Assembly (NCBI GenBank): GCA_027858295.1
Contig: JAQICZ010000014.1
Coordinates: forward strand, 1,293-65,292
Reading direction: 5' to 3'
DNA length: 64,000 nt
DNA from: Nanobdellota archaeon
GTDB lineage: Archaea; Nanobdellota; Nanobdellia; Pacearchaeales; GW2011-AR1
Part shown: positions 1 through 35,409 of the stretch, piece by piece
How positions within the stretch are numbered: the first letter of the stretch is position 1
How the letters are laid out: each line of letters begins with the position of its first letter
Program-made: the position numbers and the translations under genes
Notes under the pieces: model-generated
The model's input: the letters and a program-made list of their open reading frames with translations, nothing else
The model's database searches: none
Told to the model about the DNA's origin: nothing

Positions 1-3000
1 GAAATTATAATTTCACTATTGTAACCTCAAACTCAACAAGCATAGTAAACACTACAAATATTTCTGTAACTGTTAATGATACAACAGCGCCTTATTGGAT
101 TGATTTTGTAGACCCCACTCCAGCAAATAATACAAATTTATCTCAATCATATATCGAAGCAAATATTTCTGTTAATGACAGTTTTAGTAATATAAGTACA
201 ATAAGAATCTACCTTTACAATACAACTGGATTAGTAAACAACACAAATGTTTCTGCAGTTGGTGGATTAAATGCAACAGGCTTTGTTAATTTTTCATCAG
301 TAACCTTACCAGATGGAATTTATTACTTGAATGCAACAGCAAACGATACTGCAGGAAATGAGAACTTAACTGGACCAACAAGAACAATAACACTAGATAC
401 AACAGGACCGGTTATTACTTTGTTTAATTATACAAATGCAACATTAAAATCAAATTATTCAACTTTGGCTCTTAATGTTTCAGTTGTGGATACTATTTCG
501 AATGTAAGCGCGTGTGTTATTAATGTGAATGATAAAACAAATCAAACAGTTGCCTATAATTCCACTGGTTGGTGTAACGCAACAGCAATTTCATTAACAG
601 GTTTGGCTGATGGAAATTATACTATTAATGTTTATGCTAATGATACGTTGGGGAATTTTGCCTTGAATGATTCTTATGTCGTACAAATTAATACTGCAGC
701 TTTCTTTCAATCAGCAGTTGATTTGGGGAATGCATCAAATTTTACAATTCTTTCAAAGAGTGCTATAAGCACAACGGGAGAAACTACAATTACGGGAGAC
801 ATTGGTATAAGTCCACCTGCTGCGACGTATATAACTGGTTTTGATTTGGTGATGGATGCTGGTGGCGCATTCGCGACATCAACTTATGTAAATGGAAGTG
901 TATATGCATCTGACTATGATGTTCCCACTCCTGCCTATATGACTGATTCCATAGGTGATATGGAAACTGCTTATACAGATGCTGCTGGAAGAACAAATCC
1001 AGTTGCTACTGAGCTTGGAGCTGGAGATATTAGTGGAATGACTCTTTACCCTGGAGTATACAAATGGTCAAGTGGGCTCACAATACAAACTGACGTTACT
1101 CTAGATTGCCTTGGAAATTCAAGTGCAGTTTTCATTTTCCAAATAGCACAAACCTTAACAGTTGCTAATGGAAAAGTAATTACTTTAAGTGGCAACTGTC
1201 AAGTAAACAACATATTCTGGGCAGTTGAAGGCACAACGACACTTGGAACAACTTCCCAATTTAAAGGAAATATATTAAGTGTAACGGATATTATTATGCA
1301 AACTGGAGCAACTTTAAGCGGAAGGGCACTAGCACAAACAGCTGTTGCATTGGATGCTAATACTGTTTCTTCAACTGGAGCAGAAATTGTCTCTGTAGCT
1401 CCTGGTATTACTTTGCCACTTTATGTAAATGGAACAGCTTATACAAATTTACAAAATTTAACTTTAAATATTTCTCTTAGTAATGAAGGCACAGGTAGAA
1501 GTGCTTGTGTTGTTAATCTGAATGGAGTAACAAATCAAACAGCAAATCAAACAATTGCTTATGTAAATGGGTCAAATGGTACTGGCTGGTGTAACACAAC
1601 AGCAATTGCATTAACAGGTTTGGTTGATGACAATTATACTATTAATGTTTATGCAAATGATACACTAGGGACATTCGGATTAAATGATTCTTATGTTGTT
1701 CAAGTGGATTCAACATATCCTTTAATTGACTACGGCACTGGAGTAGAAGACAACAATACTAATATATCTCAATCGAATATTTATGTTAATGTTTCAGTAA
1801 CTGAGGCAAATGAAAAAAATATTACCTTCTTATTACATAATTCAACGGGATTCGTTAACTCAACAACCTATACAACTGCCGTAAGAACAATTAATTGGAC
1901 AGGCTTGCCTAATGGTGTGTACACATATAATGTTACAGTTGTTGATTATGCAGAAAATTCAAATACAACATTAACAAGAACAATAACTCTTGATCCAACA
2001 GCACCACTAGTTGATTATGGACTTGGTGTAGAAGTTGATGATGCTAATGTTTCTCAATCAAATATTTATGTTAATATTTCAGTAACTGAAACAAATGAAA
2101 AAAATATTACCTTCTTATTACACAATTCAACAGGATTAGTTAACTCAACAACCTATACAACTGCCGTAAGAACAATTAATTGGACAGGTTTGCCTAATGG
2201 TGTGTACACATATAATGTTACAGTTATCGATGATTCAGAAAATTCAGCTATAACTACAACAAGAACAATAACTTTGGATTCAACAGCGCCTACTGTTACT
2301 TTCAGCTGCGATAGTTCAGTAGATTTGTGGGCAACATTGGTATGTTCTTGTACAGGGGTAGATGCTGGTGGTTCAGGAGTTGAATCAACAACAATCACAA
2401 GGCCATCATCGACACTTGGAGATAATACAGCAACTTGTGCAGTTACAGATTACGCAGGAAATTCAATATCCTCTGACGTTTCATATACAGTTAGTGCTGC
2501 TAGTAGTAGTTCTGGAGGTGGAGGATACCCAACCTATTCATCAAGCCAAAATGAATTGACTACAGGCTCCCAAAAAACTATGCGAGAAAACTGGAAAATA
2601 TCCTTTAAAGTTGGAGGCGAGTCACATACATTCGAAGTTGACGAAATCGGATTAACAACTGTAAAAATAACTATCACCTCAGACCCTCAAGAAGCAACAC
2701 TTTCAATTGGAGAAGAAAAGAAATTTGATGTTACTGGAGATGGTTATTATGATGTTTCAGTAAAATTAGACTCAATAGACAACAGTAACACACAATATCC
2801 AAAAGCAGATTTTACAATAACAACAATACATGAAGAAATTGCACAAGAAATTGTTCCAGCTGCTCAACCAAAGACTGCTCCTGTTCCTGCTCCAACAGTT
2901 CCAGAGACTACTAGCCCGCCAGAACAAACAAGAGGAATGACTGGAAGAGTAATTGATGATTTTAGCCAAAGCCCTTTCCCTTGGATAATATTGGTAGTAC

Positions 3001-3098
3001 TTTTAATCGCCTTAGTTGTCTTTTTCATTATTAGAAAAAGAAACAAGGACTTAAAGAAAAAAGTTAAAATTTCAAACCCATTAAAGAAAAGAAGATAA
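1..3098 (+). CDS. Large surface glycoprotein-like protein, 5'-truncated by the window edge. Contains tandem Ig-like modules, an embedded DUF3494 domain, a Gly/Ser linker, a ~80-aa C-terminal beta module, a Pro-rich stalk, and a C-terminal TM helix with a basic tail.
   Basis: Reading frame 3 is open from nt 3, and my hand translation shows the same NxS/T-rich repeat style upstream. The TTG at 327 used by the ORF track is therefore internal. The C-terminus reads PWIILVVLLIALVVFFII followed by RKRNKDLKKK. The repeats resemble those of the 6119-aa protein (ITLD..P...NITF.L.N..G...S.....R.INWTGL.DG.Y.YNVT..D..N). Confidence 0.85.
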   Translation, partial: NYNFTIVTSNSTSIVNTTNISVTVNDTTAPYWIDFVDPTPANNTNLSQSYIEANISVNDSFSNISTIRIYLYNTTGLVNNTNVSAVGGLNATGFVNFSSVTLPDGIYYLNATANDTAGNENLTGPTRTITLDTTGPVITLFNYTNATLKSNYSTLALNVSVVDTISNVSACVINVNDKTNQTVAYNSTGWCNATAISLTGLADGNYTINVYANDTLGNFALNDSYVVQINTAAFFQSAVDLGNASNFTILSKSAISTTGETTITGDIGISPPAATYITGFDLVMDAGGAFATSTYVNGSVYASDYDVPTPAYMTDSIGDMETAYTDAAGRTNPVATELGAGDISGMTLYPGVYKWSSGLTIQTDVTLDCLGNSSAVFIFQIAQTLTVANGKVITLSGNCQVNNIFWAVEGTTTLGTTSQFKGNILSVTDIIMQTGATLSGRALAQTAVALDANTVSSTGAEIVSVAPGITLPLYVNGTAYTNLQNLTLNISLSNEGTGRSACVVNLNGVTNQTANQTIAYVNGSNGTGWCNTTAIALTGLVDDNYTINVYANDTLGTFGLNDSYVVQVDSTYPLIDYGTGVEDNNTNISQSNIYVNVSVTEANEKNITFLLHNSTGFVNSTTYTTAVRTINWTGLPNGVYTYNVTVVDYAENSNTTLTRTITLDPTAPLVDYGLGVEVDDANVSQSNIYVNISVTETNEKNITFLLHNSTGLVNSTTYTTAVRTINWTGLPNGVYTYNVTVIDDSENSAITTTRTITLDSTAPTVTFSCDSSVDLWATLVCSCTGVDAGGSGVESTTITRPSSTLGDNTATCAVTDYAGNSISSDVSYTVSAASSSSGGGGYPTYSSSQNELTTGSQKTMRENWKISFKVGGESHTFEVDEIGLTTVKITITSDPQEATLSIGEEKKFDVTGDGYYDVSVKLDSIDNSNTQYPKADFTITTIHEEIAQEIVPAAQPKTAPVPAPTVPETTSPPEQTRGMTGRVIDDFSQSPFPWIILVVLLIALVVFFIIRKRNKDLKKKVKISNPLKKRR
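696..1375 (+). other. DUF3494 / type-1 ice-binding-protein-like beta-helix domain embedded in the surface protein.
   Basis: The motif string matches the IBP/DUF3494 family as I remember it: LGNASNFTILSKSAISTTG..ITGDIGISP, DMETAYTDAAGR, ELGAGDISGMTLYPGVYKWSS, VFIFQI, NNIFWAVEG, QFKGNILS, GATLSGRALAQTAVALDANTV. Confidence 0.8.
1716..2285 (+). repeat. Two near-identical tandem 285-bp (95-aa) Ig-like modules.
   Basis: YPLIDYGTGVE...TRTITLDPT is followed by APLVDYGLGVE...TRTITLDST. The core DNA at 1784..1950 and 2069..2235 differs at only a few positions. Confidence 0.9.
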
Positions 3099-4020: not shown

Positions 4021-4165
4021 AAATAAAACAACATTTTAAGATTAACATATTCTGTGGCGAATATGTTCTACAAAAATAATTAAAAAAACACTAATTACAA
4101 TTATATAAATTCTAAAGCCAATAATTGAAGTACCTTCATTCATGGGAAGTAAATTTATATAAGAA

Positions 4166-6754: not shown

Positions 6755-6923
6755 TTTAGTCTAAAAATACAGAAAAACACCCTGAAAATAAAGAAAATTA
6801 GTCTAAAAACACATAATAACGGAACCATCAAGAATATTAGTCTAAAAAATCACACAGTCTCCTCTTGACTATAAAATATTGCTCTAAAAATCACATACTC
6901 AATTGTAAAATATTAGTCTAATA
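6755..6923. promoter_or_regulatory. Array of five direct repeats, AATATTAGTCTAAAAATCACA-like, spaced 34-42 bp apart in a divergent intergenic region.
   Basis: TTAGTCTAAAAA occurs at 6755, 6797 and 6836. TTGCTCTAAAAA is at 6878 and TTAGTCTAATAA at 6912. The array lies between the AbrB/wHTH operon (-) and the subtilase (+). Confidence 0.6.
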
Positions 6924-6989: not shown

Positions 6990-9890
6990 ATGAAAAAGGT
7001 GCTATTAATAATCATAATCCTAAGTCTATTATTCTTACCAGTTATTGCAGCAAAAAACGTAGAAGTAATAATAGAACATAAAACAACTCAGTCAACAGTT
7101 CACAATCAACAATTTACGGTCAACAATTTACGGTCAGCAGTTCCCCCGCAAAAATATGAAATAAAAACAATTACAGAAGAAAAATTCGCACAACTAAAAC
7201 AAGATACTTCAATACTAGTTCAGGAGAATATTCCAAAACATATTTTCCTTAGCGAATCTGTCCCATTAATCGAAGCAGATAAAGTTTGGAATTTAACAGA
7301 AAGCTCAAGCAATATAACAGGTGAAGGTCAAACAGTTTGTATTTTAGATACTGGAGCACAAACAACACATCCAGTCTTAATAGGAAAAAATGCAACCTGT
7401 AATATAGATTGTATTAACACCGACTGTATAGAAGATTGCTCAAAAACAGATCCCAATGGCCATGGAACACACGTCGCAGGAATAATTGTTTCAACCGACA
7501 CAATCTATCACGGAGTAACACAACAAACAAAATACATTCCAGTAATGGTTTGTGATTCTGGAGGAGTTTGCTCAAGCCTTGATGTATTAGAAGGAATTGA
7601 TTGGTGTATTACAAACAAAGATGCATACAATATCTCGGTAATCTCAATGAGTCTCGGAGTGGGACAAGAGACCTCCTATTGTGATAATAGTTACCCCGAT
7701 GACGCAGCAGCAATAAATAATGCAGTTGCTAATAACATCACCGTCGTGACTGCCACAGGAAATTTAGACGGCGCACATGGAATCACTAATCACTCTGCAG
7801 GAATCTCAGAACCTGCCTGCATTGAAAATGCAACAAGAGTCGGAAACACAGACGATACCGACAACATGGCAGACTCCGGTTTAAGACACAATTTCTTCAC
7901 AGACATAATTGCCGCACCAGGTGTGAATATTCATTCAACATGGTCTTCAGATAGTAATTCTGGAACTGTGTGTGATGGACAATCCTATTGTATTTCAACA
8001 GGAACCTCCATGTCAGCACCTCACGTCTCTGGAGTAATTGCATTGCTAAACCAATACAAAAAATTAGAATCAAATACAATCCTTTCACCATCAACAATAA
8101 AATCATTATTGCTCTCTTCAGGTGTTGAAATCGATGACATGTCAGAAAGTGGAATAAACTATTCAAGAGTAAATGTCTACCAAGCAGTCAACTATGCTAA
8201 CAACTCTATTTTAACAAAAATAAATTCCCCATCAAACAATTTAAACACAAATATTAGCAATATTACTTTCAATTGCTCAGCCGACTCCTTTAATGAAACA
8301 GAAATTACACAAATGCAATTAAACATTTTCAAAAACAATTCTATATATTATAACGAAACAAAAATTACTTCTGCCCTAAAAACCACTCAAACATTTACTT
8401 TCAATTTCACAGAAGAAAACTTTTACACTTGGAATTGTGAATCAATAGATTCAAACAATATAAAAAATTCCACTCAAAATTATTCTATAACTTATGATTC
8501 CTCTAATCCACAAACAACTCTTACAGCACCAAACGACTCTCTATTAACCTCAATAGGCAACCAAACATTTTCTTGTAACGCAACAGACAATTTACAACTT
8601 ACAAACCTAACCTTAAACATTTACAACTCAACAGGACTCTTCTATAACACAACAAACTCCTCTCCAACAAGCAACACCCTAATCATTAACAAATCTATAA
8701 ATCTCTCAACAGCAGACACCTACACTTGGAACTGCCTAGGCTACGATAACCAATCGCTCTACAATCAAACAGTAAACAGAACTCTCTCAACCTCATCAAT
8801 CCAAGCAACTCTAACACCAACAAATAACACATTCACAAACATAAATGAAACAACCTTCAACTGCTCCGCCCAATCTACAAATAATTTATCAAACATAACA
8901 CTAAATATCTATAACGGTACACAGTTAACAGTCTACAGTCAACCAGTAACCGGCCTTTCAAATTACTCAACCTTCAACCACACCTTCCCTTCGGAAGACG
9001 GCCAACCGTCAACCGTCTACCAATATAACTGCCTAGCAACAAATAACCTCTCACAATCCTCCACAACAGAAAATTACACTATCACCTACGACATCATAGC
9101 ACCACAAATAAACTTAACCTCTCCCACAAACGGAGCTTCAGAAGGAACAACATCAACATTAACAAAAGAGTTCAAATACAATGAAACTGAAATAAACAAA
9201 AACTTTTGTAATCTAACATTAAATGGGGTTTCTAAATCTTCTTTTACACAATCACTCTCACCAGCAACATATACTTGGTCTGTGAACTGCACCGACAAAG
9301 CCAATAATACAAATACATCAGATGAGCGAACTTTCATAGTAACACAAACTATTATTAATACTCCCTCAACTAGCAGCAGCGGCGGAGGCGGCTCATCAAC
9401 ACCTAGAACATACACCCCAACAGAGACCCAAATAAAAGAAGGCTACAAACAAACATTAAGAGAAAAAGAAATTATAAGTTTTAAAATAAAATCAAGTTCT
9501 CACAAATTAACATTAAATAAAATAGAGAATGGCCTTGCAGAAATAACTCTAGAATCTGACCCTATAACCCTAACACTTTACCTCAACTCCACAAAAAAAA
9601 TAAACCTAGACAACGACGAAACCTTCGACCTAGAACTAACACTTCTTGAAACAAATTCCAGAGCAGATATTAAAATAAAAGAAATCAACGAGACTATTCC
9701 AGTAAAACACATCCTAACCCCCGAAGCAAATAATATAAATGATACAAAAGAAATTCCAATTTCAACAACGGAAAACAAAACAAAAGAAATAAAACTCTTA
9801 GAAGAAAATAACAACCTCTTGAAGCAAATAATAGTACTACTAGAAAGAATCATCCAATTCTTTAAAAAATTATTCCCATTTTACATGTAA
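6990..9890 (+). CDS. Secreted subtilisin-like serine protease (S8) with a long Ig-like repeat tail and a C-terminal beta module.
   Basis: Signal peptide MKKVLLIIIILSLLFLPVIAA. Catalytic triad motifs are CILDTGAQ (Asp), GHGTHVAGII (His) and GTSMSAPHVSGVIALL (Ser). Repeats of about 95 aa follow, with FNCSA/FSCNA and YTWNC. Confidence 0.9.
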   Translation: MKKVLLIIIILSLLFLPVIAAKNVEVIIEHKTTQSTVHNQQFTVNNLRSAVPPQKYEIKTITEEKFAQLKQDTSILVQENIPKHIFLSESVPLIEADKVWNLTESSSNITGEGQTVCILDTGAQTTHPVLIGKNATCNIDCINTDCIEDCSKTDPNGHGTHVAGIIVSTDTIYHGVTQQTKYIPVMVCDSGGVCSSLDVLEGIDWCITNKDAYNISVISMSLGVGQETSYCDNSYPDDAAAINNAVANNITVVTATGNLDGAHGITNHSAGISEPACIENATRVGNTDDTDNMADSGLRHNFFTDIIAAPGVNIHSTWSSDSNSGTVCDGQSYCISTGTSMSAPHVSGVIALLNQYKKLESNTILSPSTIKSLLLSSGVEIDDMSESGINYSRVNVYQAVNYANNSILTKINSPSNNLNTNISNITFNCSADSFNETEITQMQLNIFKNNSIYYNETKITSALKTTQTFTFNFTEENFYTWNCESIDSNNIKNSTQNYSITYDSSNPQTTLTAPNDSLLTSIGNQTFSCNATDNLQLTNLTLNIYNSTGLFYNTTNSSPTSNTLIINKSINLSTADTYTWNCLGYDNQSLYNQTVNRTLSTSSIQATLTPTNNTFTNINETTFNCSAQSTNNLSNITLNIYNGTQLTVYSQPVTGLSNYSTFNHTFPSEDGQPSTVYQYNCLATNNLSQSSTTENYTITYDIIAPQINLTSPTNGASEGTTSTLTKEFKYNETEINKNFCNLTLNGVSKSSFTQSLSPATYTWSVNCTDKANNTNTSDERTFIVTQTIINTPSTSSSGGGGSSTPRTYTPTETQIKEGYKQTLREKEIISFKIKSSSHKLTLNKIENGLAEITLESDPITLTLYLNSTKKINLDNDETFDLELTLLETNSRADIKIKEINETIPVKHILTPEANNINDTKEIPISTTENKTKEIKLLEENNNLLKQIIVLLERIIQFFKKLFPFYM
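7085..7147 (+). repeat. Degenerate heptanucleotide array (9 units) inside the subtilase CDS, just after the signal peptide.
   Basis: aactcag tcaacag ttcacaa tcaacaa tttacgg tcaacaa tttacgg tcagcag ttccccc. Confidence 0.8.
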
Positions 9891-11813: not shown

Positions 11814-11904
11814 GCTCGCGGATTGAACGGATGTTACGGATATATCAAAAACAAAATAGTATCGTCCCCTGCCCTCATCCGTCAAATCCGTTTCATCCGC
11901 GAGC
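11814..11904. repeat. Inverted pair of a 28-nt element containing CGGAT three times at 9-nt spacing.
   Basis: GCTCGCGGATTGAACGGATGTTACGGAT at 11814..11841 on the plus strand. Its imperfect reverse complement is at 11877..11904. A third copy lies at 12360..12387. Confidence 0.8.
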
Positions 11905-11923
11905 AAAAATGCCTTAATAAAAA

Positions 11924-12298
11924 TTAAACTCTAGCTCTATCAAAAATCTTCCGCTTAAACTTAGCTTGCCGACCATAATTTAAAATTAAACCAATTTCCT
12001 TATCAGTAGCTCTTAAATAATTTAATAACTGAGCTTCATCAGAAACAGAAAGCTCCCTACTGGCCTTAATTTCAACAACAACATTTCCCCCAACTACAAA
12101 ATCAGCAATATAATCACCAACCACAACCCCCTCATAATAAACCTTAATCGGAAACTGATTTTCATAAGTTAAACCAGACTTCTCAAATTCAATCATCATA
12201 GCCCTCTCATAAACCTTCTCCAAAAAACCATAACCCAAAGTATTATACACCTTGTAAAATATTCTAATAACCTCCTTAGTTATCTCTTCATGCTTCAT
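11924..12298 (-). CDS. GxxExxY protein (PD-(D/E)XK_3-like small protein).
   Basis: Carries GYGFLEKVYERAM (the GxxExxY motif), VVVEIKA and GLILNYG. Confidence 0.8.
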   Translation of the reverse strand: MKHEEITKEVIRIFYKVYNTLGYGFLEKVYERAMMIEFEKSGLTYENQFPIKVYYEGVVVGDYIADFVVGGNVVVEIKASRELSVSDEAQLLNYLRATDKEIGLILNYGRQAKFKRKIFDRARV

Positions 12299-12359
12299 AG
12301 AATACCCCTCTTCTAAATATTAATAAGTTATATCAAAAACTTTTATCCCTCATATCTCA

Positions 12360-12408
12360 ATCCGTAACATTCGTCCAATCCGCGAGCAAAAATGCCATAA
12401 TAAAATAA
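12360..12408 (-). repeat. Direct-repeat partner of 11877..11925, flanking the GxxExxY gene.
   Basis: Both copies end in ATCCGCGAGCAAAAATGCC(T/A)TAATAAAA. Confidence 0.8.
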
Positions 12409-12411
12409 TTA

Positions 12412-12590
12412 CAAAAAAAAAGGAGGACTCAAAACCGAAATTTCTTGTCCTCCAACCTAAGAACCGAAGCTCAAAGGAATCCAAAACCGAAGTTTTGAAT
12501 CTCTACCTCAACCGAAGTTGGGCAGGAGACCATACCGAAGTAAGGTCCTCAGTCAACCGAAGTTAACTGGAACTAACCGAAGTTAGTAAC
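12412..12590 (-). ncRNA. Candidate ncRNA made of 7 consecutive hairpins, 6 capped by UUCG (CGAA on the plus strand). It ends in a GC-rich stem plus a U-tract.
   Basis: Stems on plus-strand coordinates: 12572..12587, 12550..12569, 12528..12547, 12507..12522, 12479..12500 and 12456..12477. The terminal hairpin GGAGGAC...GTCCTCC is at 12422..12453, followed on the minus strand by T9. Confidence 0.6.
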
Positions 12591-12608
12591 AAACAAAGAA
12601 AATGTCAG

Positions 12609-12617
12609 TTAATAAAG
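12609..12617 (-). promoter_or_regulatory. TATA-like box CTTTATTAA, 21 nt upstream of the first hairpin of the minus-strand hairpin RNA.
   Basis: The same box, (C/G)CTTTATTAA, lies at the same distance from the plus-strand copy at 34661..34668. Confidence 0.5.
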
Positions 12618-12817
12618 CTTTGGATTAGCAAGATTATCCAAAGTTTTCTCTAAAATACCGCCTAGTTAAGTTAATCATTATCTTCATTATCTCTTCATTT
12701 GTCTTTAATACTCCGATACTCCTTATCTCATAGCACAATCTTTTAAATTCGACATCATTTTCAATTCTCATCCACAATATAGTGGAATATGCATATATAA
12801 AACTTTCCACAATATAG

Positions 12818-19239: not shown

Positions 19240-19259
19240 AAATTGCAAAGCAATTTTAC
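19237..19259 (-). terminator. Perfect 10-bp hairpin overlapping the stop codon of the 4849-aa gene.
   Basis: GTAAAATTGC aaa GCAATTTTAC. The downstream minus strand includes AGTTTTG within the heptamers. Confidence 0.4.
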
Positions 19260-22200
19260 TGCAGCTCAACATAAAACACCGCTTCACTTCCAGCCCCACT
19301 ATATTCTCTTAACTTTGCCGGCACACGAAGTTCATAATCATAAGTACCATAATTACCAACAGCACCTTTGTTAATTTTAGAAACAAAAATCAAATCCTCT
19401 GCCTCTGCTATATCAAATTCACCATTAGTGTCATCAGATGAATCCCACAAAATACCAGTCTTAAAATTATTATTAGACGTAGACTGAGTCACAGGAACCG
19501 CCGGAAGGGTTCTACCAAAAACAGAAAAGCTATCCACCTCATTTGGAACAAAAGCTGTCAAATACAAGGCAGAGATAGAATCAGGAAAATCCACCATAGA
19601 AAGCAAACTATCAACTTCTAAAAAATCATCAACAGAATAAGCACTTACATTATTATAACCAAATGCCAAAACACTATCCCAGGAAACAGAACTATCCTTA
19701 TCACTCATAAACACGCTTGCACTAGCAAACCAATTAATCACAGAATTATTTTCTAAATCAGCCAACTCAAGTTCACTTGCCGACTCAATGTTACCATAAA
19801 AGAACTGCCAGGCCCCCACAGAAACATTCTCATTACCTAAATTATTATTTTCATCTCCCTCGGTAAAAGAATCTGCCCCGTCAACAACAACCCACAGCTC
19901 ATTCAAACCAATCACAGTATCATAACTATAATTAACATACAATACATCCGACACATTCAAATCAATAATCCGCTCCCCAATTTTAAAACCCGTAGCAGGA
20001 TATCCAGAATAGAATTCAACCAAAACCCCACTCGCATCAGCTATCCCAATATTGGAGACAGTCGCGTTAATCAAAATAGATTTTCCTTCCACCGGAGTTG
20101 AATCATTTAATGTAACAGCAGAAACAAAAAAGTCCGGATAACCATAACTAAAATTATAAATTTCACTAGTATTTACATTCCCAGTCAAATCAACACACTC
20201 AACTGACCAATTATGATTTCCTACAGAAATTCCATTTACATTTGATTGCCCAATACTATCATTACCTGCCCAAATATTATTTCTAACTTTTATATCATCA
20301 ACCAAGAGATCACACTGTATTGCAGTTGCCAAATTATCCGTTGGTCTCCACTGAAACTGCAATGGATCAATATTAGCATCTACCTTTGCATCAGCAACAG
20401 GGGCAACTAAACTTGCAAAAGGCGGAGTCACATCACGAGTAAAAATTGAATTTTCTACCCAAGCAACATTCGAATCCACATCTGAACAGGAAATGTTCCA
20501 ATAATGATTCCCCTCACTTATTCCGTTAACCTCGAACATATTTTCAACATTATTTTCAATCACCACATCTGCCCCCAAAGAACTACCGTCAAAAAACATT
20601 TCACACTGAGTTAATCCAGAACCATCTTTCGGGATATATGTGAAATTTACAGATGAATTTGTATCAAATGTATTATTCGTGGGTGAAACTATATCGATCA
20701 CAGGAGGAGCAGTCATTGTAAAACTCTTTTCTAAGGTCTCAAAAGAATTACCAGCCTCATCACCACATCTAATACTCCAACTATAATCTCCATCATGCAC
20801 ATCAACAAAACTCTCTGAAACCGTATTATTACTTGCCAAAACTCCAGATTCATTAAATCCATTAATTAAAATTTCACAATTTCCAACAGAATCTAAATTA
20901 TCAATATAAGTAAAATTAAATTTAAGATTATTCCAATCAAAAGTTTCACCACCAGTTGGATGATGGGTGATAATGTTAGGAACATGAGAATCAATACTCA
21001 GAAAAGAAGTTTCAGAATACCCAACCAAATTTAAATTATTATAACATTCAATACTCCAATTATGATTATTCTCGGTCAAAGTTTCTGTAAAAGAATTAGA
21101 TACCCAATTCTCAATATTTGTATCTACCGAAACAAAAACAGAATCCACATAAAGCGAACAATTAGCAAGACCACTGTTGTCTCCAACAGTGTAAGAAAAT
21201 GTCACATCTGTATCATTCGTCCAAACATTATTTTCAGGAGAATCAATTGCAACTTGAGGCGCTGCAAAATTTTCAAATTCATATTCTAAACTCGAAACAT
21301 AATTTTCTCCCAAGTCAACACAACTAGCACCCCAAGTATGATTATTAGAATTTAATGAATGAACAAAAGAAACGTTAACTCCTTCACTTGCCAAAATACT
21401 TTCATTAACAATTACATCATCAATAGTTAAATTACAATATGCTTCAGATGAATATAAATCATCAAACCAAAAAGTAAAATTAACTTCACCGCTATAAACT
21501 TCACTATTATTTAATGGATATGCTAAAGTTAAATTAGGCGCAGTTAAATCTTTATAAAAAAATCTATCTTCACTAATTGATTCCAATAAATAAACATCTG
21601 TACAATTTACAGCATAATCAAAATATCCTTGTGAAAGTGAAGTAATGTCAAAAATATTTTGTGAATCAGTCACAATTGAACTGATCGTATCAAAAACTAC
21701 GCCTCCAATTATAAGCGAACAAGAGGTAATATTGCTATTATCATTTGGTGTATATTCAAGAGAATTAGTCAAATAAGAATTATTTGCATCATTCAAATTA
21801 ATAGTTGGTGACTCAGCAATAGTGATTACTTGCTGTTCACTAAATTCAACATTATTATCCATATCAATACATGAAACATTCCAATATTTTGGACCATCAC
21901 CTAAAGAATTAACAAGATAATTAATTAATGTATTATTTGGAGCAGTAATTCCAGAATACGAAACATCCCCAACATAAAGAGTACAATCCATAGAATCATC
22001 TGTATTATCTATAACAGTAAAATTAAAATTAACTGAAGAACTAGATGAAGTAAAAGAATCAATTGGTAAATTTAAAGTAATAACGGGACCAACGGTATCC
22101 ATATCACGAATAGTAATACTCCTGTCTCCAGTTGTACCAATTAAATCAGAAGAATCTCTCGCCAAAACAGAATAATCATAATCCCCATAAGTCAAATTAT

Positions 22201-25200
22201 TAAATTCGATATTAAAATAATATTTATCCAAATCTTTTTTATAAAAATTTGTTCTATTCTTAATTATTAATTCAGATGAATTCAAAATCTTATCATAAAT
22301 TTTAACCTCATCTATATAACCATCAAAAAAGTAAGAAGGAGTTATTCCATTATATCCCATTCCTAAATTAAATTTCAAATCACTTGGTAAAGTCACCGTA
22401 GTTGAAAAAGTTCGGACAACCTCACCATCATAGATAATTGATATATTTTTACCTTCATAAAAAGCAAAACCAATTTGATGCCAATCCCCATCAACCAAAA
22501 CTGAATTTGAAATAGTTCTTCCATAAGAATCTGCCACACTCAAAAAATTAGAACCAGCAGCATGACCAATAGATAAAAGGGTATTTCCCGCGGAGTCATC
22601 AATAGACAAAATGCTTTCCTCATTGACAATAGAGCTTGTTTTAACCCAAGAAAGAATTGTTATATTCTTTGAAACAAAATTATAGGGCGCTCCAATTTCT
22701 ATATAATCCGAATCTCCTCTAAAAAATCTATAAGCACCAAGACCATCATGTCCTTCTCCACTAATCCAACTAGCACCGTTATTGTCACCAAGCGCCCCAC
22801 TTACATAATCATAAATATTATTACTATTCTCCGAAAAAGTCGCCAAATTATCAAGACCAATAAGTCCAATCAAAGAACCATCATAAATAAAATTATTAGT
22901 TCCATTAAAATCTAAAACTACTTCTTCTAAATTTGCTTCAGTTAAATCAACATCAATAATTAATCCATCTGGCAAATGATCCGAAGAATCTGCTGGAGTT
23001 AAACTTCCAAAAACAAGAGATGGGTTAATCGTATCAATTGCAAAATTGTAAATTGTCAAATTTTCATTATTAGAAGAATCACGACAAGAAAATGCAATTA
23101 TGTGATTTCCCTCAGAAACAGAATTTAATGTCATATCAAAATGAGTATCATTAACACGATTCATAGAAACAGAAGATGCAGAATCTAAAACATATGAACA
23201 ACTATTTCCATATTCGTCTAAGTAAACATCAATATTAAAATTTCCTGTTGTGTAAGCACCTTCATTTTCAATTCCAGTGATTACTAATTGGGGTGCAACA
23301 ACATCTCCAAATTTAGTAGAAACCGTTCTAGTTATTTGACGAACACCCCCATAATAATTTTCAGCATAAGTAGTGAACATATAATCATCATTAATGAGAG
23401 AAGTTTCATTTACAAAAAAAGTTCTCTGACCAGTATACAATTCTTTAGCTTCCTCATCGCTAATTACTCTATCATAAACTACAAACTTATCAAATGACCC
23501 ATTAAAATATTCAGGTGTTCCACCTGTATCTTCAATACGACCAAAGGAATAAAAATTATTAGTAACGTTTCCAATATAAGAAATAGCTTGTTGATTTAAT
23601 TCCCCATTAATATAAATCTTTGAGGAACCATTATTTGCATAACGACTAATTACAATATGCTTCCAAGTCCCATCATTAATTGGGACTGTTGATTTTACTG
23701 CCGCAGAATTCGCAACAGTATATCCAATATGCCCAGTTGCATCAAGCCAACCAATAAAAATATCATTTCCTCCTCCTGCTTCTTCAATACCAGTCACTCC
23801 AGGAGCCATCCACATAGTGTCATCCCCTACTTGTGTTGTCTTTACCCAAAAAGATAATGAAGAAGTTGAACCCAATACAGGGGTTAAAGAAACGTCAGTT
23901 TGAATGTAGTCATTAACTCCATCAAAACTTAACGCAAGCCCCTCATATCCAGTTGTATAATTAGCACCATAAATTGTTCCATCAATTCCCCCAACAAAAG
24001 AAGAAACATGAGTATCATTCTCTCCCCTAAATTCTTCACGATCTAAATTATATCCAAGCATGATTAATGAATTGAATAAAGTCTGATTTACACCATTAAA
24101 ATCTAAAATAACTGTGTTCAAATCGGTTTCATTAACACTAATATTAATTGGAATAAAATCTTGTGGAACTTCAATGCCATTAACAGGTGTAGGATTAATA
24201 TAAGATGCTCGCGGAACTTTAATGACATCTACCGTAGGCATTAAAAAACCAAAAGCATTTCCATAATCATATCTAGCATAACATCTAAGAATTGCATTTC
24301 CAGGTGAAATAGCCATTACAGGTATATCTTCAGACACAGAACCATAATTAATTGTTCCCAAATCCCGCCACTCATATCCGTCACCAAAAATCAAATGCTC
24401 ATTATTATTATGAACATTGACCCACACAGAATCATTCAAATATTGCAAAGTCAAATCCACATTTACACATTCCCCAATAGAACAATTAACTTGACAAGTA
24501 AAATTATCTTCTTCCGCTTCCGTCATAACTTTGTCATTAACAGGATAAAGAAAATCAGTATATAATTGCCCAATCAATGAAAAATCCGAAAACTCAACGA
24601 AAGAAGCTTTTAATCCATCCCAACGATGAATTAATGTTACATTTCCAACATTATCATTATATCCAGAAATCACAAGTTTTATTTTATCAGAATTTTTTAA
24701 AATGAATTCATTAGGAACAATACAATTTGAAGTCCATACTCCAGAAGTCGCACTAACACGCAATCCTCCAGTATAATCATTTCCAGATTGACAAATTAAA
24801 TTATCACCACTTGAATTTTCAAAATATAATTTCCATGTTAAATAAACTGCATTCACAGTATCAACCTCTGTATATGAACTGAAACTTACAGTAGCTCCAG
24901 TTGGAATTCTCATACCATTATTTCCTAAATATGTTGTCATCGGAATAACAAAATCAGTAACAGAAGAACCAGATAAATTAATGGATAAATAATTTTCAAT
25001 TAAATCTCGCTTATTCTTTAAATTTATTTGGGCAACATTTCCAACAAAATTTGAAGTCGAAGATTCATACAGCCGATTATTCCAATCAATACTATACTCT
25101 CCAGTAACATTAATTTGCCTTGATGAACTAATCACTTCACGATTAGAATAATCAAGACAACTAACAAACCAATCATGAATACCATTAGAAACAAAAGTTT

Positions 25201-28200
25201 GAATATTTTCAACTGTATCATTTAAAATATTATAATTTGCTCCAGAGATTTCTGAATCCAAGAATAAAGAACATTCTTTAATTCCATAATTATCATCTGC
25301 TATAAAACCAAAATCAATTGTATTTGAAGTTGTATTATAATGATCTATTGGAGCATCCAAAATAATTCCTGGATTTGTTAAATCAATATTAAACTCAACT
25401 AAATCACTTACATACTCGACTGAAGAAGGATCAACACAATAAAATACTGCAGTATGATTTCCTTCTGCTAAACCATAAACACTATTAACAAATGACGTCG
25501 GTGTGACTAATGTCATTGAAACATTTGCGGCAAAATCTAATGAATATTTACAACTAACGGAAGCAAGTTTTGTATTTACTTTGAAATCCACATCACTAGA
25601 ATTATAAGATTCATTTTGTGGAGTATCTAAAATCACAAACGAGTTTATCGGGACTCCCATTTCAATAACTTGCCAGAAAGCATCATTGGTTTGATCACCA
25701 GTTCCCTTATAAAATTCTAAATTAGTGTCACTAGTTAAATAATTTGTTAATGCAGAATTTGCAAAAGTTGTTCCACCACCAGTTGAATCATGTGATTCCA
25801 GACTGAAAGCTTTAGACGAATTCACAGAAGAAATTGGTTGATTGATTGCACTAGATCCAGAAATACTCCTAGTTCCATTTTGAACACCGATTTCTAAAGA
25901 CTCAACAACAAACCAAGACACAGTAGAGTCACCAGTAGTTCCAGTCCGATTAAAATCAATTTTATTTGAAAATAAAGTAGAACGAACATTGAGCTCATCA
26001 AGTCCAGTAGCACCAGAATCAAAACTATTTGAAGTGATTAAAAATGCAGTTGAAGTGTCAACGCTCTTACTCAAAGAAACAGTTCCAGAACTTCCGGAAA
26101 AAGTAGTTGCACCTACCTGAACTTTAGAACCACTCCATTCTATTGCCTGCCAAGCAATTTCACCAAAAGCCCCAACCTGACTTCTCTCGAAATTTAAATA
26201 AGAGGTATTACTAAATTTAGAATTAAAAAATCCATAAACATTTTCAGCAGTATCTGTTGAGGATAATTTGTTTGATGAAATAATAAAACTTTTACTCAAA
26301 TTAAAATTCTCTGTAAATGCAGTCACCGCAGAATCACTTGCTAAAAATGGAGAAATTCCACGACGCACAAAAATATTTGAAGATTCTATAACCTGCCAAT
26401 CAATATTAACAACTCCTGAAGTAGAATAGCGACTAAAAGTAATATTGTTTTTATTCAAAACTCCTTCAATTTGAATCTGTGCAGGAGTACTAGTTGACGA
26501 ACGAATTGAAAATAATAAAAAAGCATTTGCTAAATAATCAGTAGTTAAAGGAATGACTGTTTCACTCTCCCCGTTGGCAATTATTGTTCTTCCTTTTACT
26601 ACTTCTGGAGAAAAAGTAGTAACAATATTAAAATTACTAGAATTAATTCCTGCACGACCATTCTCTCCTAAACAAGAAAAATTAACATAATTAGCTCCAT
26701 TACGAACATAATCATCTGATGCAGAATAAAAAGTTGTATTTATTTGAGTCATCAAAACAGGCGGACCAGAATTTAAAGAATAAGTACAATTTTCAATTGT
26801 CACGTTGCTCTGTACTGCAAAAACAACTGGACTAGAATTTATTTGCCCAAAAGGAGAAACAACTTCTATTACTGGAGCAGATAATTTTTTCACCGTCACA
26901 AATCGATTATTTCTTGCATAAGACATTTCCCCTATAATATTTTCACATCGAATATTCCAATCAAAACTAACATTAGACAAATTTGTTAAAGTGAATTGTA
27001 CAGTAGCACTTTTTCCACTTACAGATTTAGTTTCACCTAATTGTAAAGAACCACTAGCACTATGAACCAAATTACATTCTTTCAAATTCGCTTTTGCTTC
27101 AACATTTGCAACAAAAGTTAAATTTGCTGGATCCAAATCATATTCTGCATAATTATTCTCTGGACTAACAAGACTTATTTGAATTGCATCTTTTCTCGTT
27201 GGCCAAGTAACAACTTCACAATTAATGTTATGAGACGGATCAGTATTTCCCGTTCTTCCTCTTTCAAATTGAATAGTAGTATTATCATAATAAAATGCAG
27301 GGTATTCTCCTCTAGACGAAGCTGTCCCTTCCCCATTAAGGAAAGAATAAGAACAAAATAAACTACTTGCATTCAAATCAATTTGCGATGGCAAAGTTGA
27401 ATTAAATATTGTATTATCTCCAATTTCTAAATCTGTTGGTGTATGATGTATAGCAGAAGAATAAACTCCTTCTTCAAATTCCACAACATAAATTTCACAT
27501 TCTTGAGGAGCAGTTCCGCCTGTACCCAGTTCTGAAGTTAAACAAGTAACTGTTGATGAATCTTTAAATTTACATTGTATATTTACATCTTCAATTCCAT
27601 ACTCTTCAGAACGACAAGAATGAATTAAAAATGAATTATTCAAGTTAACAGATTTTCCAATATCAAAATCAACCCCTGTATCCAAATGCACTTCTCCAGT
27701 ACTAATATTAGTAACTCTCGAGTTATCATTAAAACACACAACATCCGCCCGCACTTCCCGATTTCCACAAGCCCTTGTATTCGCCTGCACAGATAAAATA
27801 TTTTGAGATTCAAATTTACCCATAAAAAGTCCTTCTCCTCGACAAGAAGCATCTGAACTTGAAGACATCACATTATTTCTAACTGAAACAAAGCATTTAT
27901 CTTTGTAATTGCTTGGCATAAAAGCACAAGCAGAAGCCAAACTAATATTTAATTTATCAATTCCATTACCAACAATTCCCTCGACGTGACATGTATCAAT
28001 ATATTCCGTTTCCAAAAGACTATAAGACCCCACCATCGAATCAGTAGTCCCAATACGTTCAATAGTTAATTGATTTGAATAACCTCCAGTAATATTTGAA
28101 AAATAAAACATTCCATCTGCATTATTTGGAGCAGTGTTTGTTGATGCAGATATCTGACTATCCACAATCATAAATGCATGATTAACATAATAATTATTCT

Positions 28201-31200
28201 CTAAAGTTATATTTGTTTGAGTTCCAGAAACATATCCGAAACCAGATTCAGCTTGAACTTGCGCCCTCAAAGAAAAATCAGAAATAATAAAATCAGCAAT
28301 AGCAATATTAATTTTATTTGTTTCATCCAAAACAACATCTAATGCATAATTTACAGGATTATAAATAACAAAAAATTCCCAAATAGAATATAATGGACCA
28401 GTTGCATTAACAGCCCACTTAGAATTACAATAATCCCCTCCTTTCATACCAGATAAACAAGGCAAATTTAATGGGCTCAAAGGATTCTGCATTATTGTAT
28501 AAAATGGAACTCCAGAATTCATTGGTACTATTCCCTTGCTATTAACATCTGCCCACCTTTCAAAATTTCCAATTGAAATTAAATTTGCTTGATTTTCAAT
28601 TAATTGATATGTCTGATTAATCCAGTCTGCACTTCGTGAAATTCCAGAGATTGTTACTTCATCAATTGTCCCCACATATCCTTGTCCCCCATCAGTCATA
28701 TCTCCAATTGCTAACCCATCAATTCCATCATAATCTGCAATCCCGCCAGTATGTGCAACAGTACTAAACAAAACCCCATCCACATAATACATCGCATGAG
28801 TCCCATTATAAGTACCAGTCAATAAATACCATGTTCCATCCGCCATAGTATATGTTGCAGAACTTGTTGCCGTTGTTGTACTTGCAACATGCCACATTAA
28901 ATCAGTATCGCTTCCAGCATTTAATTCAAATCCATAAGCTCCCCACGGAGAATTATCGTTAGGACCATACCATAATGGTTTTGCATAATCTACTTGAGCC
29001 CCATTTCTTTTAAGCCAAAGTGAAACCGTTATTGCACTAGTAGGTTCCAAATCTATTGTTCGAGGTACTTCAATTACATCTGCTCCATCAAACTCTTGTG
29101 CTAGTCCAATCTTTCCAGTCGTTTCAACTGCTCCACTATTTACTGCATCATTTGCATTAATAGTTGAATCATATTTTGTTCCAGTTGTTCCATTCAAATG
29201 CCAAACTCCCAAATGATTTGAATCCCAAACTCTCGAAACATCCTCGCCAGAAACAGCCAAAGAATTATTGTAATACATACAAATTGAATTAACTCCTGCT
29301 GAAAACAAAGGCGCCCTAACCCAAACATCGGCATAAAGCGTATCATAATTTTCAATTTCAAAATCCATTTCTACTCCACCTTCAGAAGAACAACTTCCAT
29401 TAACAAACCTCAAATCCGCCAAATCTGTTTGCATTTCAGATTCTACTGGAAGTTTCAAATGAACTGGAAAATCAATTAGTGATGATACTCCACCATTAGT
29501 AATATTAATTTCTTTTCTTAAAACCCAAGAAGAATTCCACCAAATAAGTTCAGGGTCCAGCGTTGCATTGATGTCACCACATTCACCTCCGGAACAAGTT
29601 ACTCTTGATGTTATATTAAAAAAATCATTTTGTAAAACACTCGCACTCGTTGACGGAGAAACAAAATATGAACTTAATGTTCCCCAAGGAATAAACCAAT
29701 TAGAAGATCCATAATCAACATGAGAACCATTATCATAACATTCAATATTCAATGCAAAATCTCCAGAATCCTCAACTACCCAATTAAGATTATCACGAAT
29801 CCAATAATCACTCACATTTGACGTAGAATTCACATTAAAAATTGTGCTACTATCTGGAATATTTAATAATTCAAAATTTACTCCTACAACACTTCCCTTA
29901 TTACTTGTGCAATTTGCTCTAACTCTAGTAATAACCTCACCATAATTAATATCAGAACAATTTTTCCAAATACTATTCTCTTCACAGTCTATTGAATTTA
30001 TCACAGAATTTCCAAAACTTGTTGTTGTTGAAATAGTCAAATTTATCGAAGGAGTTTGAGTTGTATTAACATAAGAACTATAATTTATTGAATCATAAAT
30101 TGTAAAAAATTCCCAAGAAGAATCCAATCCACCAGTTGCATTAACAATCCAACTATTCACACAAGAATCACCATCTTTCATATCTGCCAAACAAGCAGTA
30201 TCTATGTAATTCACAGGATTTTGACTTGTAGTATAAAATGGAACACCTGTATTCATTGGGATTATTCCTTTGAAATTTTCACTAGCTTCTCCATATAATA
30301 CCAAATTATTTTGATTTTGAATTAATTGATATGATTCATTAATCCAGTCTGCGCTTCGAGGCGTATCTGAAAATCTCAATTCATCAACTTGCCCATCCAA
30401 ATGAGTTTCTTCTACAGCAGTTGATCTATAACCAAATCCTGACCGCAAAGGTTCTCCCGAAATAACATTCAATGCCTGTCCAGAACAAGTTGTACTTGTA
30501 GCAACACTTTGACCATCAATATATGCCGTAGCTGTAGTCCCATCAAAAGTCAAAGCATAATGATACCACTCACCCAAATTCACAGCACCACCTGCAAAAT
30601 ATCCTTCTGTTCCACCACAAGTTACCCCAAAAGTTGGAGCTCCAGCACTTACAGCAATTCTAAAAAGATAGTTTGCCCCCCAACCCAATTGTGACCCTTT
30701 CCATAAAATCGGATTATGGTCTGGCGTCGTCCATGTGTCAGCCTTTGCCCAACCCTCTGCTGTAAAAACTTGTTTTTGTAAATCAGTAGAATCAGGTACT
30801 TCAATTCTTTGTTGATTATTTCCTCCAAGGTCATAACCAGAAGCAACTTTCGCAGATGCTAAATAAGTAGGAGTAGTTCCTAGTGGTGCTCCATTATTAC
30901 CATTTCCCGTTGAATCTAATAAAAAATCTCCAGTCCCGCTAGCTTCTTCTAAATGCTGAACTGTCATATAATTGGAGTTCCAAACTCCAGCTGCATTCCC
31001 CCGATTAACTGCATTCGAGTTATCATAATACATACAAATTGAATTTATACCAGAATAAAAATTTGGTACTCTTAACCAAACATTTGCAAAAGTAGAATTA
31101 TAACTTTCAATCTCAAAATCCACCTCAGAACCACCACCCGTTTGACACGCGCCATCCACAAATCTTAAATCATCCAAATTTGAACCCATTTGTGATTCAA

Positions 31201-33822: not shown

Positions 33823-34026
33823 TTATTTAATAAATGACCACAAGTTCATTCGCCCGACTCTAAACCCATTCACCTTTCCAGCAATCTGAAGCATCAAACA
33901 ACGAGTCTGCACAGAATGCCACGGCTTATTTAATTTAATAGAAATATCTTGAGTAGAAACAAGCTGCTCGCTAGAACTTAATAATTTTACAATTTTCCCC
34001 TGTAATTCATCCCCTTTAACAGTCAC
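33823..34026 (-). CDS. Small winged-helix DNA-binding protein (67 aa, GTG start) directly upstream of the giant gene.
   Basis: KIVKLLSSSEQLVSTQDISIKLNKPWHSVQTRCLMLQIAGKVNGFRVGR has a wHTH-like pattern. An AGGGGAAG SD lies 8 nt upstream. Confidence 0.55.
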   Translation of the reverse strand: MTVKGDELQGKIVKLLSSSEQLVSTQDISIKLNKPWHSVQTRCLMLQIAGKVNGFRVGRMNLWSFIK

Positions 34027-34131: not shown

Positions 34132-34552
34132 ATAATAAACAGCCTAAAAATCTTTTTAAACATTGCGAAGTTTCGCACGAATAACCGTACGATGTATTGC
34201 AAAAAAAGAAATGAAGAAACTCACTTTCATAAAAAAAAGCCGCCTACACATCTTACCTTCTTAACCACAAAGTCAGGCAAATCTGCCCTTGCTATTCTCC
34301 AACAGTTCAATCTTTTTTACAATAACTAGTTCCATATAATTCTAGAAACCAATTTAATATTTAGATCGATAACTCCCCCAGATTATGGGGCAATACTTAA
34401 TTCCAATAAGGCTCCATTGAGTGGTTACAGTCGAACAATTCATGCACGCACCACGAGGGATAATTCAAAATGTTTTGGCAACAATTAGGGCGGGTGTGAC
34501 GTGTTTCCAAAATTCGGGACGCGAATAATAATTGCCAAAACTGCTTTCTATT

Positions 34553-34637: not shown

Positions 34638-34660
34638 TCACTTCCAAGTTACCCTAAACC

Positions 34661-34668
34661 TTTATTAA
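34661..34668 (+). promoter_or_regulatory. TATA-like box TTTATTAA, 22 nt upstream of the first hairpin of the plus-strand hairpin RNA.
   Basis: The sequence context is CCTTTATTAATC. The paralogous box lies at 12609..12617 on the minus strand. Confidence 0.5.
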
Positions 34669-34689: not shown

Positions 34690-34975
34690 ACTGCCTTCGG
34701 GTAGTTTTTGTCAACTTCGGTTGTCAAAACGAACCAGTCTTCGGACAGGTTCAGAGTTCGACTCACGTCAAACTCAGAGTAACCTTCGGGATACTCAGAA
34801 TTAACTTCGGTTAATTCATTAAGTACCAAAATTTATTTTGGTCACCACAGATCTTCGGATCCAACGGTCAGACCGATCCTTCGGGATCAGTCGAGTTGAA
34901 TTTATTCAACTCAGAATAACTTCGGTTATTCTCGGGGGCAAGATTTTCGGATTTAGCCCCCTAAATTTTTATTTT
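34690..34975 (+). ncRNA. Candidate ncRNA of about 11-12 back-to-back hairpins: 9 capped by UUCG (including the terminal stem) and 2 by UUUA. It ends in the stem GGGGGC...GCCCCC plus a T-rich tract.
   Basis: Stems: 34690..34705, 34706..34729, 34731..34752, 34777..34796, 34798..34817, 34825..34842, 34850..34861, 34871..34892, 34893..34912, 34913..34932 and 34934..34961. Three 8-bp stems are perfect, and the others have at most one mismatch. Confidence 0.65.
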
Positions 34976-35409
34976 ATATAAATATTAATGTTTTATTTTT
35001 ATTATAGGATTTTTAATTCTATTATATATATGCGAACGCCCACGCCGAGCATTAAACCACTACAATATTATCTATCAATAAATCATCAATAAATCAAAAC
35101 TACTCTGCTAATCAGAAACAATCTGTGCACGCACTACGAGGGATAATGAAATTAGTCGTTCTGGGTGGGTGAGCATCTTCTAAAATTTTTTAATAAATAG
35201 AAAGTCCCATTGATTTAAAGAAAGATTTCACGGAGTGCGAATTATCAAAAATTATTAAAGAATTTTTTGCAATAATTACAAAATGACGAAAAGCCATCGG
35301 ATATATTGCGGAGGCCGGGGGAACGAACAGTGTGGGTGAGAATCTTCTGGCGCCCTCAATTAAAACCTTCTTGGCAACACGAAGTTTGAATAGGGAGGGG
35401 CGGCCTTAA

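Follow-up and report, generated by a model that had tools for sequence, protein, structure and literature searches.

Two paralogous genes for a small RNA built of UUCG-capped hairpins in a DPANN archaeon

Bacterial CsrB/CsrC and RsmX/Y/Z are stand-alone sRNA genes that end in a hairpin and a U-run. They carry many hairpins with the same short motif, the number of sites differs between paralogues, and no antisense seed is present. We describe here a family of archaeal RNAs with the same properties, for which CsrB/RsmZ would be the closest functional analogue, although the GGA loops that define it are absent. CsrB/RsmZ also bind protein multivalently, which is only proposed for the new RNAs. The Csr/Rsm motif is GGA, held in larger loops and in single-stranded linkers and bound by bacterial CsrA/RsmA (CsrA is a bacterial family), whereas the new RNAs repeat a closed AAC-UUCG-GUU stem-loop and have an archaeal host. 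Tandem hairpins with AUCG tetraloops also form the Xist A-repeat, where they bind SPEN. That element resembles our RNAs as a multivalent array of short hairpins with UNCG-like tetraloop caps and, if our reading is right, as a protein platform. However, it belongs to a eukaryotic lncRNA, consists of sequence repeats with U-rich linkers and has no evolutionary relation to the UUCG-hairpin family. Archaeal H/ACA sRNAs are likewise small RNAs of one to three consecutive hairpins, but each of these hairpins is ~60–70 nt long, with a pseudouridylation pocket, a K-turn or K-loop and a 3′ ACA box, all of which are absent here.

Among recently described tandem hairpin arrays of parasitic prokaryotes, the nearest are those of TIGR-Tas. 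They share with our RNAs the tandem hairpins, the variable palindromic stems, a terminator after the array and hosts that are parasitic prokaryotes with small genomes. TIGR hairpin loops are long, with a box C, a box D and two spacers of 8–12 nt, and a gene for a Nop-domain Tas protein lies next to the array (Faure et al. 2025, PMC12045711). In contrast, our hairpins have 4-nt loops and lack box C, and no Nop domain was found in the neighbouring ORFs scanned. Repeated structural units with frequent UUCG/UNCG tetraloops are also found in the STAXI and psaA motifs, for which it was argued that UUCG implies a function as RNA rather than as DNA (Weinberg et al. 2010, PMC2864571); the argument applies equally to our RNAs. 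Unlike them, STAXI consists of pseudoknots repeated 2–3 times near bacterial DNA-handling genes. The psaA motif is a three-hairpin 5′ UTR of cyanobacteria, and the Rfam models of both motifs gave no hit here.

We analysed a stretch of 64,000 nt, called the window throughout. It is well supported that RNA A is one of two paralogous genes in the window for a small non-coding RNA of a DPANN archaeon (Nanoarchaeota). The original prediction placed seven consecutive hairpins on the minus strand at 12412–12617, and seven were indeed found, back to back from 12587 to 12422. The features of the two loci are as follows.

12609–12621, minus strand: putative BRE/TATA-type promoter of RNA A, AAAG-CTTTATTAA, −34 to −22 from the inferred start
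12413–12587, minus strand: RNA A, ~175 nt, with inferred start A12587, seven hairpins and a U9 tail
12572–12587, minus strand: hairpin 1, ACUAAC-UUCG-GUUAGU, at the inferred 5′ end; the most conserved element of the family
12550–12569, minus strand: hairpin 2, CAGUUAAC-UUCG-GUUGACUG; covariation in the 5′-module and A-type alignments
12527–12548, minus strand: hairpin 3, GGACC.UAC-UUCG-GUA.GGUCU; five of eight pairs with compensatory double changes among orthologues
12503–12525, minus strand: hairpin 4, CUGCCCAAC-UUCG-GUUGAGGUAG; from the predicted fold and the A-type alignment
12478–12501, minus strand: hairpin 5, GAGAUUCAAAAC-UUCG-GUUUUGGAUUC; four of ten pairs compensatory
12456–12477, minus strand: hairpin 6, CUUUGAGC-UUCG-GUUCUUAGG; from the predicted fold and the A-type alignment
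12413–12453, minus strand: 3′ module, GC-clamped GGAGGAC..AAU-UUCG-GUU..GUCCUCC (12453–12422) followed by U9 (12421–12413); read as an archaeal oligo-U terminator
34656–34668, plus strand: putative BRE/TATA-type promoter of RNA B, AAAC-CTTTATTAA, from the sequence and the family alignment
34690–34970, plus strand: RNA B, ~281 nt, with 12 hairpins, eight capped by cUUCGg and the others by UUUA, UUUA, UCAC and U-UUCG-G
34934–34961, plus strand: terminator hairpin of RNA B, with U5 after it

Several details of RNA A had been predicted correctly. The spacing of 21 nt between the box CTTTATTAA (12617–12609) and hairpin 1 (from 12587) is exact, ACCGAAG occurs six times on the plus strand, and the unit closes with GGAGGAC-AAGAAAUUUCGGUUUUGA-GUCCUCC and U9 at the coordinates given above. 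Six AAC-UUCG-GUU apices had also been expected. Six caps are cUUCGg, but the full AAC-UUCG-GUU apex is present in only four of the seven hairpins, the remaining apices being UAC..GUA, AGC..GUU and AAU-UUCG-GUU. The window contains 28 copies of CTTCGG where 8.8 ± 2.8 would be expected, and none of 100 shuffles reached 28. Half of these copies fall into two clusters, six at 12464–12582 (minus strand) and eight at 34695–34925 (plus strand), and this clustering is far beyond chance. Since the RNA A locus is identical across the RNA in four independent assemblies, an assembly artefact is ruled out. We consider the RNA A gene and its structure very likely to be real.

We compared the RNAs with known classes. 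Exposed GGA motifs of the CsrB/RsmZ type are lacking: there are 0–6 GGA per RNA and the loops are UUCG, and in RNA A every GGA lies, by inspection, in a stem arm (for example in GAGGACC and GGAGGAC). A TIGR stem-loop array was rejected on loop content, as 58 of the 67 predicted hairpin loops in ten RNAs are 4-nt UUCG and RUGAUGA boxes are absent. Moreover, no Nop-domain match was found among the ORFs scanned in the window or beside relatives, a scan that left out the 6119-aa ORF and included several ORFs devoid of any Pfam hit. C/D box sRNAs were rejected on a count of zero for box C (RUGAUGA) in all ten RNAs, box D being CUGA. H/ACA sRNAs were rejected because the hairpins measure 16–32 nt, have at most small internal loops and come with 0–2 ACA per RNA; the single ACA of RNA A is not 3′ of a hairpin. 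CRISPR and type III antitoxin (ToxI-like) arrays were rejected as well: all stems differ, tandem repeats finder (TRF) detected no tandem repeat within either RNA gene, and the neighbours are the GTPase, TrpRS, a PDDEXK_3 cassette and surface proteins, with no cas or toxin gene. The only TRF entry was an 18-bp repeat at 12675–12692, upstream of the RNA A promoter.

Searches with Rfam 15 gave no match at the gathering threshold across the whole window, and in E-value mode the two loci with their flanks scored at best 8–19 bits against thresholds of 33–112. Complementarity to the rest of the window did not exceed 13 nt and was not beyond chance, so antisense targets in the window were rejected. 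Coding potential was rejected too: only a 44-aa ORF with a TTG start overlaps RNA A, and no ORF is conserved. By eye, the sole ATG frame of RNA A spans ~20 aa, with an ATG whose position differs in orthologues, and RNA B has no ATG at all. A literature search, whose incomplete coverage makes absence no proof, returned no description of such an RNA. The family comprises real archaeal small RNAs of an unusual all-UUCG-hairpin architecture that is apparently undescribed.

The host was identified from the neighbouring genes. The GTPase next to RNA A shares 100% identity with an NCBI protein assigned to a Nanoarchaeota MAG, its more distant relatives are named Pacearchaeota or Nanoarchaeota, and one family member lies between the aIF2-beta and DUF424 genes. 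This makes the host a DPANN archaeon. The DNA of the window is cellular, has 31–38% G+C across 2-kb windows and a strong strand bias, and encodes a TrpRS/TyrRS-type synthetase, a DRG-type GTPase with a TGS domain, an S8 peptidase and an ice-binding-like protein. The ice-binding-like domain (PF11999, E = 1e-71), found in a 923-aa protein at 327–3098 (plus strand), suggests a cold habitat of the source organism. Two giant ORFs on the minus strand, one of 4849 aa with Laminin_G_3 and CARDB (19256–33805) and one of 6119 aa (37527–55886), probably encode surface or adhesion proteins. A PDDEXK_3 nuclease-family gene (11924–12298, minus strand) is flanked by 46-nt direct repeats (11877–11922 and 12360–12405, 85% identical), an inverted copy of which lies at 11814–11841. 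The whole region, 11814–12405, resembles an inserted cassette that separates the GTPase gene from the RNA A terminator, and relatives lack it.

That the two copies belong to a structure-constrained RNA family was supported by nine further distinct loci on other metagenome contigs (handles beginning with L), giving eleven with the two in the window. A metagenome scan with a pattern for hairpins 1 and 2 returned eleven loci. Five are true and represent four distinct sequences, namely L127, L134, L133 and L131, which is identical to L135 in the RNA region. The other six (L125, L126, L128, L129, L130 and L132) are false positives, either coding sequence of high GC content or repeats with a constant stem. 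L138, L150, L189 and two adjacent genes in L139 were added by walking from homologues of the GTPase and from the small neighbouring gene. A hairpin array is also present in L126, on the minus strand (offsets ~2670–2930 of the reverse-complemented locus, plus strand ~1020–1280) of a contig with 32% G+C. Its constant stem, ACUAAC...GUUwGu, and variable 4-nt loops are the inverse of the UUCG-family pattern.

From nine family members, both window copies among them, we built a covariance model that spans the promoter and hairpins 1 and 2; as its construction leads one to expect, it scores these members at 70–96 bits. The 87–88 bits of each window copy (87.8 bits for RNA B) are not independent evidence, because both are among the nine. 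Independently of its nine members, the model also recovered L189 (59 bits) and L133 (41 bits), and a search of the window with it found no third copy. A homologous 5′ module is common to RNA A and RNA B. Their stems differ, as predicted, and they change by compensatory substitution.

The family falls into two syntenic orthologous groups. A-type members (window A, L135, L138 and L150) have seven hairpins in ~167–175 nt and adjoin a DRG-type GTPase gene. In L135, L138 and L150 the RNA lies directly upstream of this gene in the same orientation; in the window the PDDEXK_3 cassette is inserted between the two, and the arrangement is otherwise the same. B-type members (window B and its syntenic orthologues L127 and L189) have ~10–13 hairpins in ~280–300 nt and are transcribed divergently from a conserved winged-helix-like ORF of 67–73 aa, itself followed by a giant surface-protein gene. 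L139 short, L134 and L133 are short forms of two or three hairpins; the L139 and L134 copies lie beside other genes. The A-type keeps its number of hairpins, and whole hairpins are gained or lost in the B-type.

In the window, the winged-helix-like ORF (67 aa, 33823–34026, minus strand) lies between the giant gene and RNA B and has no Pfam hit. It is conserved in 15 metagenome proteins at 54–69% identity and always stands ahead of the giant surface-protein gene (L127, L189, L190 and L191). We rejected this small protein as a partner of the RNA, since L190 and L191 keep it beside the giant gene and no RNA was found there. RNA B is flanked by 31-nt direct repeats (34434–34464 and 35117–35147), 87% identical and 683 bp apart, which may be a trace of mobility or recombination.

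Linkage to the GTPase is not a rule. No RNA is present upstream of the GTPase gene in L136, L137, L139–L146, L147, L148 and L149, and the RNA is therefore dispensable, being missing from several close relatives. L149 has no RNA upstream of its GTPase gene. At 1400–1490 it retains ATTATTAAC and CTCTTTTTC, apparently what is left of the promoter and the terminator after the RNA body between them was cleanly deleted. L139 matches L140, L141 and L144 without a difference as far as 6331 and diverges exactly where two tandem hairpin-RNA genes begin (6331/6332), which marks either a strain-variable island or a chimeric assembly junction. In L136, a G+C-rich segment (ggggtggcggccggggttgtggatgg, 9760–9800) occupies the position of the relatives' A-type RNA within an A+T-rich intergenic region of 320 nt; it may be a different small RNA. 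A scan of genome contigs for three occurrences of ACTTCGGT gave, among the matches listed, no locus with more than three distinct UUCG hairpins, and unrelated tandem repeats. We found no family member in viral contigs, hence the family is not viral, and a phage collection showed no similarity.

Archaeal promoters have a TATA box centred near −26 and a BRE just upstream. Because the host is an archaeon, and going by this geometry, the box in front of RNA A reads as a BRE/TATA promoter and the U-run as an archaeal terminator. In the window copies the box lies at −30 to −22 and AAA at −34 to −32, and the spacing is near-identical in the aligned members. AAA, TTTA and a T/A step at the inferred start are invariant in nine of nine aligned members. 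The start falls at a pyrimidine-purine step, and the conserved TT/ACU places it on the first base of hairpin 1. Ordinary genes (TrpRS, PDDEXK_3 and IVP) have similar CTTATTAA/TTATTAAG boxes 22–24 nt before the ATG, and the same kind of box stands ahead of leaderless genes in this genome. Furthermore, the box is not enriched in the window (39 matches with at most one mismatch versus 57 expected). Thus, it is a generic promoter and carries no family-specific signature. A box shared by both loci had been put forward as a mark of the relationship. It is present at both, at 34660–34668 in RNA B rather than from 34661, but as a generic archaeal promoter it is not a hallmark of the family.

The terminator architecture, on the other hand, is common to both loci, as had been claimed. 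Family members share a G/C-rich 3′ clamp (for example GGGRG...CYCCC), in most cases followed by an oligo-U run. The T runs after the last hairpin are T5–T9 in most members and only T3 in L134, and the orientation of promoter and U-run is consistent in all loci. With a BRE/TATA element ~22–34 nt upstream and an oligo-T run at the end, the boundaries of RNA A are consistent with an autonomous archaeal transcription unit. A scan for sigma-70 promoters and intrinsic terminators is uninformative for an archaeon, and it missed the interrupted terminator stem. Internal U5–U6 runs occur in the 3′ arm of a hairpin in L135 (~1712–1718), L138 (~4093–4099) and L139 (~6766–6771). In archaea, such runs could cause partial premature termination and give shorter isoforms.

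The predicted folds are far more stable than those of shuffled sequences. RNA A has a minimum free energy of −74.6 kcal/mol on the minus strand (z = −6.3, none of 200 shuffles as good), RNA B reaches −108.7 kcal/mol (z = −10), and the fold z-scores range from −6.3 to −10. The plus strand of RNA A folds with only −53.3 kcal/mol. This asymmetry of 21 kcal/mol, together with conserved G-U pairs in the A-type alignment, fixes the transcribed strand. About 61–69% of all bases are paired and the linkers are mostly 0–3 nt. The G+C fraction of the RNAs is 0.39–0.46, above that of their genomes, with the exception of the 56-nt L133 at 0.30.

We scored compensatory changes in alignments of four to nine sequences, a small sample for such statistics. 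The four A-type orthologues come from genomes whose GTPases are 70–78% identical to that of the window. Among them, 97.6% of the pair cells hold standard pairs, and both partners have changed in 15 of 53 pairs; shuffles gave 6.4 ± 1.8 such pairs (0 of 500 reached 15) and shifted registers 1–2. In the 5′ module (hairpins 1 and 2, nine sequences) 7 of 14 pairs covary, a number that again none of 500 shuffles reached. Hairpin 1 is paired in 100% of the cells of these nine sequences and has double changes in three of its six pairs. Slid controls of both alignments yielded 0–4 double changes. The loop of hairpin 5 is predicted to be CUUG in L135 and L138. Mean column identity in the A-type alignment is 81% overall, and by inspection of the four orthologues the RNA body is much better conserved than the promoter-to-start spacer. 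The RNA structure is conserved and covarying, with the compensatory substitutions that mark a structured RNA.

The hairpin apices carry a further signal. The two pairs beneath the C-G closing pair favour A-U over U-A, by 48:9 and 44:8 (21:5 and 20:5 in a non-redundant subset), whereas pairs 4 and 5 are unbiased (15:20 and 16:17). We know of no stacking-energy difference that would explain this bias, which is therefore not obviously a mere effect of stability, and the 10-nt AAC-UUCG-GUU looks like a sequence-specific consensus. Alternatively, the AAC..GUU bias could stem from the birth of hairpins by local duplication.

We propose a trans-acting RNA that serves as a multivalent platform to bind, titrate or scaffold an RNA-binding protein, and we give this reading a probability of about 0.3–0.4. 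Transcription would start from the BRE/TATA promoter on the first base of hairpin 1. RNA polymerase would then make a chain of 2–13 short helices of 5–12 bp with joins mostly of 0–3 nt, nearly all capped by cUUCGg and usually by AAC-UUCG-GUU, and would stop at the oligo-U run just past the GC-clamped hairpin. Because both ends lie in helices and almost no RNA is single-stranded, the chain should resist 5′ and 3′ exonucleases as well as endonucleases and accumulate; the RNA is probably abundant. It would offer no antisense seed and no junction or pocket for a ligand. Instead, it would display many copies of one sequence-specific stem-loop to a protein, with a binding capacity set by hairpin number, and would be an archaeal functional analogue of the CsrB/RsmZ sponges. 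A sponge or scaffold is favoured because the capped helix is the only repeated information in the RNA. Counting against it, the neighbourhoods examined show no co-occurring partner protein, cUUCGg loops classically serve as inert structural caps and not as sites that proteins recognise, and the RNA is dispensable. We hold more tentatively the general proposal that DPANN archaea carry lineage-specific multivalent hairpin RNAs whose AAC-UUCG-GUU repeats titrate or scaffold a dedicated RNA-binding protein.

The RNA might also have no specific partner. It could be an inert, hyper-stable molecule selected for a bulk property, such as occupying nucleases and helicases or storing nucleotides, or it could be a hairpin array, nearly neutral or selfish, whose persistence reflects its resistance to degradation. 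In favour of this, UUCG caps are established to make tertiary or protein contacts less readily than any other loops, close relatives do without the RNA, L139 departs from otherwise identical contigs exactly at the RNA genes, and RNA B has its flanking direct repeats. We nevertheless regard this explanation as doubtful: compensatory change maintains each hairpin across species whose GTPases have diverged to 70–78% identity, both paralogue lineages keep their own synteny, and the orientation-specific apical consensus argues for selection at the level of sequence.

A polycistronic precursor, cut in the 0–3 nt linkers to release single active hairpins of ~16–24 nt (guides, primers or cofactors), is unlikely. 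Its stems of 5–12 bp are fully self-paired and so leave no accessible guide, the window holds no detectable targets, and no linked nuclease, Argonaute, Nop-domain or Cas gene was found in the neighbourhoods examined. In addition, a conserved hairpin at the 5′ start and a clamp at the 3′ end point to the whole molecule as the stable unit. What speaks for such a precursor is the beads-on-a-string layout of distinct stems under constant caps, an array-like variation of hairpin number between paralogues and orthologues, and stem sequences conserved beyond the needs of bare structure.

We consider it quite improbable that the RNA is a cis-acting leader, attenuator or insulator of its neighbour, which would be the GTPase for the A-type and the small winged-helix ORF with the giant gene for the B-type. 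The A-type RNA does lie directly upstream of the GTPase gene and co-oriented with it in L135, L138 and L150, as it would in the window but for the cassette that now separates them. However, the RNA ends with a hairpin and oligo-U, and the GTPase has its own TATA box ~20 nt before the ATG; a leader is disfavoured because this box is retained in L149, where the RNA has been deleted. Moreover, the B-type is divergent from its neighbours, and the L139 and L134 copies have different ones. Least probable is a cluster of DNA palindromes serving as cruciforms or as protein-binding or recombination sites: each unit is an inverted repeat in DNA and the loci lie at rearrangement-prone spots, but the conserved G-U pairs are C-A mismatches on the opposite strand, the two strands differ by 21 kcal/mol, promoter and U-run are consistently oriented, and UUCG stabilises RNA whereas TTCG does not particularly stabilise DNA (PMC2864571).

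Two paralogues of a conserved RNA kept in so small a genome imply a real cellular role, and a design of nothing but UUCG-capped helices is unusual. DPANN archaea are uncultured and host-dependent and have minimal genomes, and to our knowledge almost nothing is known about their non-coding RNA. The clear boundaries of the family and its 10-nt consensus site make direct experiments feasible. Should the sponge reading fail, the family remains a clean example of hairpin-array evolution by gain, loss and compensatory change. If the RNA is indeed a multivalent sponge or scaffold, a bacterial regulatory principle would be extended to Archaea and the cUUCGg tetraloop would gain a recognition role. Archaea would then have their first described sponge system of the CsrB kind, and this supposedly inert tetraloop would for the first time be seen as a recognition element in nature; hairpin copy number would be an evolvable control of dosage.
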